Source: a virus (Duplodnaviria; Heunggongvirae; Uroviricota; Caudoviricetes). Taken from it: 16,033 bases of DNA. Made by a program: the position numbers. Location of the stretch: positions 1 through 16,033 of the IMG/VR virus record IMGVR_UViG_2778261151_000016; one strand, given 5' to 3'. Each line of letters begins with the position of its first letter. Positions within the stretch are counted from its first letter, which is position 1. Positions 6,001 to 12,000 of the stretch are shown here, piece by piece.

Positions 6001-9000
6001 CTTTAAAAGCTGTGGTATGGGAAGACATTAAAAAAAACGATGACGAGTTTGTCGCATTGCCTCTTCTTAACGTTTCGCTTTCGGCTGGAAGCGGTAGCTG
6101 CGAGATAGAAGAATCATCAGAGTTCTCTTTGGTTTTCAGAAAGTACTATCTGAAAAAGATGGGGGTAACTGAAAGTTCTGCCAAGCTGGTAAGGGTAACA
6201 GGTCAAAGCATGGAACCAACTCTTCACGATGGCGATGTTGTTGGTGTTAACACACAAGATACCACCATCAGAGATGGTAAAACCTACGCTATTTGCCAGT
6301 CTGATTTGTTGCGAGTAAAAACATTAATCGCCACTCCTACATCGGTGATAATCAGATCAATAAATCGCGAAGAGTACCCGGATGAAGTAATGGATAGAGA
6401 TGAATTTCATAAAACCGTAAGGATTATTGGCAGAGTATTCTGGTCATCGCATAGCTGGTAACCAGTGGCCTGAAGAAACGTTTGGGTGAGGAGGATAGAT
6501 GGCGTTCACTGACCTTGAATATCAAGCGGTCAAAAAAGAAGTTCACCAATTCATTGAAAGCATAAGGCCGCCTGAACATATCCGCAATGAACTGGATATT
6601 GTTTATAGCATCAATGACCAAACGATAGATATCGGCGAACAGCGCCCCGTGTGGCAGGGCAACCCAGGTGAAACAAACATCCTGCCATCAGCAAGAATCA
6701 AGTACATACGTTCTCTGGATAGATGGAAAATCTATTGGATGCGGAAGGATATGAAATGGCATCAGTACAGTACTGAACTTTCGCTGACTGATGCGCTTGA
6801 GCTTGTGCGTGCTGACCCGGATTGCTGCTTCTTCGGATGAGTGAAGAGACATTTTGGTGATGGATGGTCGCAGAAGTGCGGCCTTTAATGTAATCGAAGA
6901 AAAGTAATCCTTGTAAAACTTGATTTGACTGTATTGTCACAAAGAAAGGAATCAACGATCGTTTCTTGGGTCTTGATTTGTTTTGACGATCAAATTAGTA
7001 TTGCCTCATCAACTGTATGAGGCTTTTTTATGCAAACCAAAAGCTACACCATCAAAGCATTTCAGGACTTCTTACAGATGCTTCCTGAGCTTGGTATCGT
7101 CAATGATGCTACAGCCCGCAATCTCCGTGACTCTTCCCTGCGCCTTCTTACTGTTCTTGGGTCGGATTTCACCGATGCCGATATCCGTGATTATAGCGTT
7201 GCCAACTTAGCAAGTTCGTACGCAGACTCAGCAGAAAGCAAACCCTCTGAATCATCTTTGCAGGCATACAAAAGCCGAATGCAAAGTGCTATTGATAAAT
7301 TTATCTCCTACCAGAATGGTGAGATTAATGTGTCAGTTGGTGATGTAAATAAAAAAAAGGAGCGTAAAAAGATGGCACCTAAGAAGAAGGCGGTAGCTGA
7401 CGTACAGGTTGGTGTAAAAACATTTGAACTGCCGATTCCATTGCGCGGAGATCTTATCGTCACCATTGGCAACCTGCCTCGCGACCTGACAAAAGATGAA
7501 GCCAAGCGTATCAGTCTGATTGTGGAATCTTTTGCGATGATTGATGGCGGAACAAAAGAATAAAGCCCCGAGGGAACGGGGCTTTTTGGGTCGGAAATAT
7601 ATCCAGTATTTCCGAAGTGTATGGAGGATTACCTACCGCTACACCCTTGGCAACCGCAAGCCAAGGATAGCGGTTCTCCCAACAAACTACAACCTGTTCG
7701 GGTAAACAGGCTGTATACAAAAACAGGAGAAAAGCTATGGCTCACGATGTTAATCGCGATGACTTCATCTACGAACACGACAAGCCGGTTTATGTGCGCA
7801 GTTACTGCCGCATACGTTTCGGTGAGCTCGAACATGTTCGTCAGCACTTCCGCTCTTATCCGAGCTGCTGAAAATAACTAAATCTCAAACCCGGCTTCCG
7901 CGCCGGGTTTTCTTTGCCTCGCGATCGTCCCCCATATTTAACAGCCGCAAATGCGGTAAACCACGAACCAACACGCCAGCAATACAGCGCCCCCCTTCCA
8001 ATACCGACCAATCCGCAACATTTACAAAAATAAAATACCTTTATTATCCATCACTTATAACTTATTTATCAGAATTCATGAATTAAGTTATTGATCACCG
8101 CTATAACCTAGGTTATCTTTAAGCCATCAGCAGGACGCACTACTCACCAGGGCGGTGAATATACAACGATTCGAATATGAATCTACGGCGCTGACAAAGC
8201 GCAATAACCAAAGTGAACTTTGGGGTGTGGTGAAGGGTTCATGGACGGGAATATGTCGCACGTAAAGCGGCGAGGCCTGCGGGACTATTGCCGAATTGAA
8301 GTAGGCCGAAACAGGTCAAAATGGGTCTCCCACCTACCACACCACCAAAGTTCATCAGGAGGTCTATATGACACGCAGAACTCAGTTCAAAGGCAATTCA
8401 CGTTCTCGTCGTCGTGAGCGTTTAAAGGCAAAGGCATTAGCTAACGGCGTGCTGGCCCGCGAAGAAGCAATAAGTTCAGAAGTATTACACCGCCCTACTC
8501 TAAGCAGAGCGCAGATTCAGGCTAAAGGTACTCACGAAACGCCTGAGCGCATAGAAGACGCTAAGCCAATTAAGTTCATGGCACAGGACGTGATCTGGCA
8601 ACAGAAAGAATACAGACGCAATCTGGAGCGAGCGGCCATTGTGTACGCGAATGAGTTTGGACATAAGCAACCAGAAACTGGTGTATGTCTTCCAAACGTA
8701 GCCATTTACGCGGCAGGCTACCGGAAATCAAAACAACTGACAGCGAGGTAATTATGGATTTAAATAAATTAGAAGCGTTATTAGAAGCATCAGTAAAAAA
8801 TTTTATCTCAGTACTTGATGAAAAAACTGAAGATATTAAGAAGGCAAATATTGTCGAACTTGTAAAAACAAGAGCCAGTACATTTGATCATCTTCCTGAT
8901 GATGTCCGGTCAGCGGCAATTCGCGTATATGTAACGGCACTAAGCAATAGTGAACCACCAATTGATGAAGAATCAAGAGATATTCAGAAAAAACGGTTTG

Positions 9001-12000
9001 AGATGTTAGCCAGCAACATTATCGCTGGTTTCACACGGCTCTTAACAAAAGAGCCTGCCAGTGAAGCTATTCGCCAGCAGGCTCAGGTAATTATTAATCA
9101 GGCAGAAACTATTTCACGTGAGCGAAAAGAATTTCGTAAAGAGGTTTCTGAGCTTCAAGCATCTCAACCGCAATCCACTATTTAAGGTGATATATGGAAG
9201 AACAAGCAAACAAGATTCTCGTAGAACTACTGCAAAAAGCCAGCAATGGAATAGACGCGGCTGTTTCATTCAGCCAGGCACAGATTCCTGATGTTGTTCA
9301 TCAGTTGCTGCTATGGAATATGGTTGACAGTCTGATTAAAACATTAATAGCCATTCTAACAATCCCTCTGGTTTTCTGGTTTATGAAGAAGCAGTGCCAA
9401 AGAGTTGAGACAGGTAAAATCGGTGATGAAGGATATTCATGGGAGAAGGGAAATCCCAAATACAGGCCGACAATGGTTTGGGATAGCAAAGGTGATATTA
9501 ATCTTCTTATCATGCCACTGGTTGGAGTTTTGACTCTGTGGGGAATTTTTATTATTGGTGTAGTAACCAATATGACTTGGTTAAAAATTTGGCTGGCCCC
9601 AAAGCTTTACCTTATCGAATATGCAGCATCATTGGTTAAGTAATTTCAGGCCGCATAGTTGGTCTTTATTTTTGGCACAAGCAACAGAATAAACACTGCA
9701 CTGTGTATTCATTCCAACGAGTGAATACACGGAGCAATTTAAAGCGTAAATAAGGAGCACACCATGCAATATGCCATTGCAGGGTGGCCTGTTGCTGGCT
9801 GCCCTTCCGAATCTTTACTTGAACGAATCACCCGTAAATTACGTGACGGATGGAAACGACTCATCGACGTACTTAATCAGCCAGGAGTTCCCAAAAATGG
9901 ATAAAACACTTATGGCTATCCAGACTAAATTCACTATCGCCACTTCTATTGGCGATGAAAAGATGTTTCGTGAAGCCGTCGACGCTTATAAAAAATGGAT
10001 ATTAATACTGAAACTGAGATCAAGCAAAAGCATTCACTAACCCCCTTTCCTGTTTTCCTAATCAGCCTGGCATTTCGCGGGCGATATTTTCACAGCCATT
10101 TTCAGGAGTTCAGCCATGAACGCTTATTACATTCAGGATCGTCTTGAGGCTCAGAGCTGGGCGCGTCACTACCAGCAGCTCGCCCGTGAAGAGAAAGAGG
10201 CAGAACTGGCAGACGACATGGAAAAAGGCCTGCCCCAGCACCTGTTTGAATCGCTATGCATCGATCATTTGCAACGCCACGGGGCCAGCAAAAAAGCCAT
10301 TACCCGTGCGTTTGATGACGATGTTGAGTTTCAGGAGCGCATGGCAGAACACATCCGGTACATGGTTGAAACCATTGCTCACCACCAGGTTGATATTGAT
10401 TCAGAGGTATAAAACGGATGAGTACAGCACTCGCAACGCTGGCTGGGAAGCTGGCTGAACGTGTCGGCATGGATTCTGTCGACCCACAAGAACTGATCAC
10501 CACTCTTCGCCAGACGGCATTTAAAGGTGATGCCAGCGATGCGCAGTTCATCGCATTGTTGATCGTCGCCAACCAGTACGGCCTTAATCCGTGGACGAAA
10601 GAAATTTACGCCTTCCCTGATAAGCAGAACGGCATCGTTCCGGTGGTGGGCGTTGATGGCTGGTCCCGCATCATCAATGAAAACCAGCAGTTTGATGGTA
10701 TGGACTTTGAGCAGGACAATGAATCCTGCACATGCCGGATTTACCGCAAGGACCGCAATCATCCGATCTGCGTTACCGAGTGGATGGATGAATGCCGCCG
10801 CGAACCATTCAAAACCCGCGAAGGCAGAGAAATCACCGGACCGTGGCAGTCGCATCCCAAACGGATGTTACGTCATAAAGCCATGATTCAGTGTGCCCGT
10901 CTCGCCTTCGGATTTGCTGGTATCTATGACAAGGATGAAGCCGAGCGTATTGTCGAAAATACCGCATACACTGCAGAACGTCAGCCGGAACGCGACATCA
11001 CTCCGGTTAACGATGAAACCATGCAGGAGATTAACACTCTGCTGCTCGCCCTGGATAAAACATGGGATGACGACTTATTGCCGCTCTGTTCCCAGATATT
11101 TCGCCGCGACATTCGCGCATCGTCAGAACTGACACAGGCCGAAGCAGTGAAAGCTCTTGGATTCCTGAAACAAAAAGCCACTGAACAGAAGGTGGCAGCA
11201 TGACACCGGACATTATCCTGCAGCGTACCGGGATCGACGTGAGAGCTATCGAGCAGGGAGATGATGCGTGACACAAATTACGGCTCGGCGTCATCACCGC
11301 TTCAGAAGTTCACAACGTGATAGCAAAGCCCCGCTCAGGAAAGAAGTGGCCTGACATGAAAATGTCCTACTTCCACACCCTGCTGGCTGAGGTTTGCACC
11401 GGTGTGGCTCCGGAAGTTAATGCTAAGGCGCTGGCATGGGGAAAACAGTACGAGAACGACGCCAGAACTCTGTTTGAATTCACTTCCGGCGTGAATGTTA
11501 CTGAATCCCCGATCATCTATCGCGACGAAAGTATGCGCACCGCCTGCTCTCCCGATGGTTTATGCAGTGACGGCAATGGCCTTGAGCTGAAATGCCCGTT
11601 TACCTCCCGGGATTTCATGAAGTTCCGGCTCGGTGGTTTCGAGGCCATAAAGTCGGCTTACATGGCCCAGGTGCAGTACAGCATGTGGGCGACGCGAAAA
11701 GATGCCTGGTACTTTGCCAACTATGACCCGCGCATGAAGCGTGAAGGCCTGCATTATGTCGTGGTTGAGCGGGATGAAAGGTACATGGCGAATTTTGACG
11801 AGATGGTGCCGGAGTTCATCGAAAAAATGGACGAGGCACTGGCTGAAATTGGTTTTGTATTTGGGGAGCAATGGCGATGAAGCATCCTCGCGATAATATC
11901 CGGGTAGGTGCGATCACTTTCATCTACTCCGTTACAAAGCGAGGCTGGGTATTTCCCGGCCTTTCTGTTATCAGAAATCCACTGAAAGCACAGCGGCTGG

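Follow-up and report, generated by a model that had tools for sequence, protein, structure and literature searches.

The DNA analyzed here, hereafter the window, spans 16,033 nucleotides (positions 1 to 16,033 of the IMG/VR virus record IMGVR_UViG_2778261151_000016, a member of the Caudoviricetes), and its plus strand carries the early leftward operon of a lambda-like prophage. Two small genes, here called A and B and predicted to encode a soluble and an inner-membrane protein, respectively, lie between the antiterminator gene N and cIII, with 8 nt between them. An initial annotation, made from the sequence without database searches, had singled them out as an AT-rich, horizontally acquired pair and as a candidate superinfection-exclusion or abortive-infection module. 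Our results support the acquired origin of the two genes and do not support the module. A and B are probably unrelated and independently moving accessory genes of the delayed-early pL operon, lodged in a hypervariable slot, with B most likely having a role at the envelope during the lytic cycle. The coordinates of all features are collected in Table 1.

The slot is bounded on the left by N and on the right by a conserved hairpin, and its content differs between phages. The initial annotation had placed ral and sieB of lambda here; both are indeed present, together with orf28, but sieB lies on the opposite strand. The corresponding slot of Sf6 holds gene 36, ral and gene 34, that of E. coli FDAARGOS_944 holds Nmad5, and that of FDAARGOS_943 holds B alone, 8 nt after a lambda-type N. 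In the last but one of these, a prophage nearly identical to that of the window (CP065613), N is truncated and the slot is taken by the nucleotide-modification gene Nmad5; the usual 3′ flank of B follows directly after Nmad5 there, which suggests that B was lost from this prophage.

The base composition of the two genes sets them apart from their surroundings. The GC content is 0.377 for A, 0.400 for B and 0.389 for both together, against 0.473 for the whole window, 0.49 for N and 0.51–0.53 for gam, bet and exo, and A plus B is the lowest in GC of all 890-bp segments in the 16 kb. The impression of a conspicuously AT-rich stretch between lambda-like flanks was thus accurate: N (Pfam N_peptide), cIII and kil, then gam, bet and exo, were all identified. 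Foreign composition, a variable slot and a near-identical prophage with Nmad5 in their place support the view of A and B as horizontally acquired cargo. Among the features expected of a moron (an autonomous inserted transcription unit), foreign composition and a terminator-like site after B are present, and a promoter-like site was not found by consensus scan.

Two hairpins lie between B and cIII. The first is terminator-like, with a T-run, and belongs to the 3′ flank of B; the same element follows B in five further loci and is also found in CP065613, which lacks B. The second had been reported with a 9-bp stem; it is real, its stem extends to 12–14 bp, and the 131-nt region folds with a z-score of -4.4. 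Lambda has the same 28 nt between ral and ea10 (NC_001416, 34013-34040), and Sf6 has them within its annotated boundary sequence bsq4; of 17 loci compared, 10 are identical and 3 more have a single mismatch (13/17 identical or with one mismatch). The hairpin lacks a T-run, and Rfam contains no matching family. We considered this hairpin as part of the cargo and rejected the idea, as it is conserved in lambda, Sf6 and most loci; the same conservation assigns it to the lambda backbone, where it delimits the slot on the right. It may serve as a site of RNA processing or mark a boundary of recombination.

The description of B as a 149-residue protein with two transmembrane (TM) segments stands in its length, its coordinates and both hydrophobic segments, and the start codon is preceded by AAGGTGA. 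Over its full length (residues 1-149) the protein matches phrog_3054 with an E-value of 3.7e-64; this family, which includes Sf6 gp34, is without assigned function in PHROG, and 104 of 104 diverse relatives of B match it as well. The B family is large (516 clusters at 90% identity; 1,878 at 50%) and has no Pfam model. Two hydrophobic segments are found in 98 of the 104 relatives, and the sequence between the conserved ends is highly variable: among 103 cluster representatives, mean identity to the B of the window is 52% in the N-terminal 45 residues, 20% in TM1, 15% in the loop, 14% in TM2 and 77% in the C-terminal 22 residues, while loop length ranges from 12 to 65 residues. The C-terminal segment, a predicted amphipathic helix, has the motif WLKIWxAPKxYLxEYAAxLxK and the core APKxYLxEYA, in which Y143 is invariant and conservation is 90% or more at A135, P136, K137, L140 and E142.

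The same pattern is visible in DNA within the lambdoid phages, where the ends of B are nearly identical and at least three central alleles (149, 140 and 121 aa) occur between them. Sf6 gp34 has nearly exactly the N-terminal 40 and C-terminal 21 residues of B and is likewise encoded directly before the boundary hairpin region of the slot; its central TM-loop-TM region is another allele, so that the two proteins (140 and 149 aa) share 50% identity overall. Gene 34 follows ral in Sf6, whereas B follows A in the window. In lambdoid phages a gene whose 322-aa product has a very long coiled coil rich in E, K, A and R (Sf6 gene 33) is often found 3′ of B-family genes; it is absent from the window, and nothing corresponding to it adjoins the B homologs of virulent phages. 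The ratio of nonsynonymous to synonymous substitution rates (dN/dS) for B against the copy in CP015228 is 0.13, indicating strong purifying selection, and B is 100% nucleotide-identical to a solo copy in CP065615. Its conserved 5′ end is present in 217 of 5,426 complete E. coli genomes, 132 of these with the central allele of the window, and the family is matched in 181 phage records.

The family extends well beyond the lambdoid phages. Homologs occur in N4-like phages of Salmonella, Shigella and Vibrio, where they adjoin genes for RNA polymerase II, dUTPase or thymidylate synthase, and also in phi92-like myoviruses, in the Pseudomonas phages Lyrsu01 and Bjorn and in a Rheinheimera phage; the virulent phages that carry them infect Escherichia, Salmonella, Shigella, Klebsiella, Vibrio, Pseudomonas and Rheinheimera. 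In all four contexts inspected the homologs lie among early-type genes. They have no conserved neighbor: the genes that flank them in phi92, FSL SP-076, a Vibrio Schitovirus and Pseudomonas Lyrsu01 show no relationship among themselves or with Sf6 gp33.

Charge counts give some indication of how B may sit in the membrane. Across the family, the 12 residues after TM1 contain on average 3.0 lysines and arginines and those before it 0.58, while the N-terminal tail has a net charge of -4 and the C-terminal tail of about +1. By the positive-inside rule this weakly favors a topology in which both termini would be periplasmic; in either topology the two conserved segments are on the same side of the membrane. 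An AlphaFold 2 (AF2) model of B is of low confidence (pLDDT 62), and a Foldseek search of BFVD with it gave no match with E below 1. B has no Pfam, NCBIfam or PADLOC match above threshold and nothing credible in a profile search of PDB sequences, and scanning the 104 relatives singly against Pfam and PADLOC gave scattered single weak matches (five PADLOC models, one member each). The source names of ten divergent relatives were uninformative, and our literature searches found no paper on the family.

Gene A encodes a predicted soluble, all-helical protein. The coordinates and solubility given in the initial annotation are correct, and the length is 143 aa instead of 144. Its ATG at 8754 is common to the homologs, has GAGG 6 nt upstream and lies 2 nt after the N stop codon; a longer open reading frame (ORF), from 8685, overlaps the end of N. 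The protein has a grand average of hydropathy of -0.45, no hydrophobic segment and a mildly acidic isoelectric point of 5.3, and its AF2 model, of low confidence (pLDDT 64), consists of five helices. A profile search recovered 34 clusters, all from Enterobacterales, in which the first ~95 residues form a conserved core and the C-terminus is variable. In contrast to B, A has a dN/dS of 0.36-0.75 (about 0.5), is found in 7 of the 5,426 E. coli genomes and has no tblastn match among 50,697 phage records. There was no Pfam, PHROG, PADLOC or NCBIfam match above threshold, nothing credible in a profile search of PDB sequences and no Foldseek match of the model to the PDB with E below 1. In the loci examined A always follows N or a remnant of N. 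The exact A of the window is listed in 83 blocks of the collection, with the same prophage context at every place examined, which points to a single lineage.

If A and B formed a functional unit they would be expected to travel together, and a survey of related prophages does not bear this out. A and B are adjacent in one of the 5,426 E. coli genomes, CP015228, and are 300 bp apart there. B occurs without A in 181 of 181 phage records and in at least 216 of the 217 E. coli genomes, standing alone after N or after ral in other loci. Conversely, A is found without B in CP025913, where a phrog_1636 gene comes next, in CP148401, where IS1203 does, in CM168023, where cIII is the next gene, and in prophages of Citrobacter and Edwardsiella. 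Synteny therefore contradicts a conserved module of A and B.

The close spacing of the two genes has a separate origin. Alignment with the CP015228, Salmonella and E. albertii loci places the junction of a 309-bp deletion, with ACCGCA microhomology, at the 3′ end of A. Lost with it were a convergent antisense ORF and its upstream region, the native last codons of A and most of what had remained of the 3′ end of a lambda-type N gene. The few bases left behind, ...CCACTATTTAAGGTGATAT ATG, are those of the N-to-B junction of FDAARGOS_943; the leader of B is itself such an N remnant. As the deletion joined the end of A to this leader, the 8-nt spacing is a scar and not an evolved operon junction. 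It is confined to one prophage lineage; in the other shared loci A and B are 300-1,000 bp apart, with the antisense ORF and sometimes Nmad5 between them.

The recurrent neighbor of A in its relatives is this convergent antisense small ORF, which overlaps the 3′ end of A. It comes in alleles of 84 and 60 aa, each paired with a different C-terminus of A, and is preceded by a strong Shine-Dalgarno sequence and by two direct repeats of TTCCACAGTCAAA; a consensus scan found no promoter upstream of it in CP015228. The arrangement, which recalls the convergent layout of N and sieB, is conserved from Escherichia to Citrobacter and Edwardsiella, and in the window the ORF has been deleted.

The initial annotation recognized neither protein, and remote-homology searches likewise returned no characterized homolog; SieB, SieA, RexB, Ral and Imm are all unrelated. 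B and the SieB proteins of lambda and P22 are membrane-associated accessory proteins encoded in the same slot next to N, but hhalign probabilities are 0.28% (P22) and 0.10% (lambda), and blastp detected nothing; sieB is convergent to N and in P22 also has the internal esc start, whereas B runs with pL. SieA, which has three predicted TM helices, lies in the immI region, carries the motif FxRYPxEAxxFNK and occurs in types (PMC10883804), differs from B with its two helices and aligns to it with a probability of 0.12%. The values for lambda RexB and T4 Imm are 0.19% and 0.28%. SieA, the 83-aa Imm and, by prediction, B are all small inner-membrane phage proteins, and the virulent phage T4 produces Imm early in infection, as N4-like and phi92-like phages would their B-family proteins. 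Lambda Ral and A are both small soluble proteins encoded early and close to N, with A twice the size of Ral; their hhalign probability is 0.05%, and neither A nor B has a Ral-family match in Pfam or NCBIfam. By its position A may be a fast-evolving soluble early protein comparable to host-takeover or anti-defense genes such as ral.

The orientation of the two genes bears on when they would be made. Both lie on the pL strand downstream of N, and a crude consensus match, which could miss a weak or activated promoter, found no promoter-like site on the plus strand between 7500 and 10200. Without a detected promoter of their own, and running with pL, A and B are unlikely to be expressed in the lysogen; they would be silent there and made from the N-antiterminated pL transcript after induction or infection. 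This differs from sieB, which in P22 is antisense to pL with its own annotated promoter and in lambda is also on the opposite strand; sieA and sieB are expressed from the prophage (PMC10883804).

These observations lead us to favor, as the probable explanation, two accessory genes of separate history in the slot, with B acting at the envelope. The two poorly conserved TM helices of B would serve to anchor the conserved, acidic N-terminal segment of ~45 residues and the amphipathic C-terminal helix on the same side of the membrane, and from there the protein could either act on a conserved host membrane component or exclude secondary infection in the manner of T4 Imm. A lytic-cycle role is likeliest because the family is also found in the early regions of virulent phages, and immunity expressed from the lysogen is unlikely. 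The host-directed and Imm-like roles cannot be separated: the hypervariable core favors an arms-race determinant, and termini common to phages with differing virion types favor a host target.

Several points weigh against this explanation. A hypervariable core between ends that are identical in DNA resembles the outcome of alleles being shuffled under diversifying selection, a pattern that suits a phage-phage specificity determinant, and hence exclusion, no less than it suits a conserved host target. The predicted topology derives from charge counts only, and a C-terminal tail of about +1 fits periplasmic termini poorly. The crude promoter scan leaves room for a weak or activated promoter, so A and B may be expressed in the lysogen. 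Of the 8 locus types seen, 5 have full-length A together with a B-family gene in the slot, so that a loose functional link between them is conceivable. Both AF2 models are of low confidence, and structure thus added nothing to the explanation. Finally, what is said of the functions of both proteins is drawn from sequence.

One alternative is that B alone is a superinfection-exclusion protein whose specificity is set by its TM-loop-TM core. We regard this as rather unlikely. In its favor, B is a small inner-membrane protein in a slot that elsewhere houses sieB, its three or more central alleles between near-identical ends in lambdoid phages parallel the types of SieA (PMC10883804), and early exclusion proteins, T4 Imm among them, are encoded by virulent phages too. 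Set against this, homology to SieA, SieB, RexB or Imm is lacking at the hhalign level (all below 1%), as is a PADLOC match, and with no promoter of its own found B could exclude other phages only during lytic growth. Its most conserved parts are moreover common to siphoviruses, P22-like and N4-like podoviruses and myoviruses, whose machineries for DNA delivery differ, which argues against a target in the incoming virion.

A second alternative concerns A, which might be the decaying remnant of a cassette that has lost its partner, leaving B as the one functional gene of the two in this prophage. The deletion of the convergent ORF, the replacement of the last residues of A, its dN/dS of 0.36-0.75 and its tiny family are all in keeping with decay; the intact frame, the Shine-Dalgarno sequence, the identity of A across many assemblies of the prophage and a ~95-residue core untouched by the deletion are not, and we hold this reading to be doubtful. 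That A is a soluble sensor or antitoxin and B its membrane effector in abortive infection or exclusion is very improbable: the 8-nt gap, the shared strand, the shared AT-richness and the co-occurrence of full-length A with a B-family gene in the window and in the CP015228, E. albertii and Salmonella loci speak for it, but the spacing stems from a lineage-specific deletion, each gene occurs without the other and selection on the two differs sharply (dN/dS about 0.5 and 0.13).

The early left region of the window runs from N through A, B, cIII, kil, gam, bet and exo to further early-left genes, xis and int. A prophage beside ybhC in E. coli FDAARGOS_944 is 99.2% identical across 83% of the window. 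Right after cI, in the position of lambda rexAB, are genes for a DUF3024 protein and a 177-aa phrog_2602 protein, followed by a 44-aa ORF. The DUF3024 protein matches the PADLOC candidate defense model PDC-S43 (E = 7e-42) and is a better candidate for prophage-expressed defense than A or B, because genes in the rex slot can be co-transcribed with the repressor. A 968-aa Toprim primase-helicase contains an intein with Hint and LAGLIDADG homing-endonuclease domains (approximately residues 379-634). At the left end a 213-aa ORF has an HTH_Tnp_1 transposase domain; the nearest relative prophage has nin-region genes at this position, which points to an insertion sequence (IS) insertion or a replacement.

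Table 1. Features of the window, followed by features of the loci compared with it.
Feature	Position	Strand	Remarks
ORF with HTH_Tnp_1 domain	156-797	-	213 aa
Toprim primase-helicase	949-3855	-	968 aa, with intein
cI	5724-6461	+	
DUF3024 gene, phrog_2602 gene, 44-aa ORF	6499-7871	+	in this order after cI
GC-rich hairpin with T-run	7888-7917		read from sequence; not listed by consensus scan
AT-rich region with operator-like inverted repeats	~8040-8125		upstream of N
N antiterminator	8368..8751	+	127 aa; Pfam N_peptide, E = 2e-15; phrog_271; left edge of variable slot
Gene A	8754..9185	+	143 aa; small Enterobacterales prophage family
Junction of 309-bp deletion	9166..9175	+	ACCGCA microhomology
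Gene B	9194..9643	+	149 aa; predicted inner-membrane protein; PHROG 3054
B TM1	9332-9382		residues 47-63; hydropathy
B TM2	9506-9556		residues 105-121; hydropathy
Terminator-like hairpin with T-run	9648..9675	+	immediately 3′ of B; consensus scan
Boundary hairpin	9698..9725	+	right edge of slot
cIII thermoregulator RNA	9751..9809	+	Rfam RF01804, 88.5 bits, E = 1e-21; overlaps cIII start
cIII	9764-9904	+	Pfam Lambda_CIII
Truncated N and Nmad5 in slot, locus L004 (CP065613)	9650-10420		near-identical prophage
322-aa coiled-coil gene, locus L003	3622-4590		Sf6 gene 33
322-aa coiled-coil gene, locus L001	7441-8409		
322-aa coiled-coil gene, locus L011	5984-6952		
Antisense ORF, locus L001	6410-6664	-	
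Antisense ORF, locus L006	4287-4469	-	
Antisense ORF, locus L021	2850-3104	-	
Antisense ORF, locus L022		-	
Antisense ORF, locus L024		-	

Taken by themselves, A and B are everyday mosaic cargo of a lambdoid slot already well known to vary, and they change little. Orientation and ownership of a promoter set lysogen-expressed exclusion genes (sieB and possibly the lost antisense ORF) apart from early genes driven by pL, and this distinction helps to avoid labeling every gene in the slot as defense. The B family, which is large, lacks a Pfam model, occurs in temperate as well as virulent phages and shows an unusual pattern of conservation, is a tractable target for cataloging early membrane proteins. 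More speculatively, and in our view rather unlikely as it stands, PHROG 3054 may comprise widespread, unrecognized early inner-membrane effectors whose termini act on one conserved envelope component of gamma-proteobacteria while the recombining, hypervariable TM-loop-TM core tunes specificity; if so, temperate lambdoid phages and the virulent N4-like, phi92-like and Vibrio phages would have in common one lytic-cycle mechanism for excluding other phages or taking over the host.

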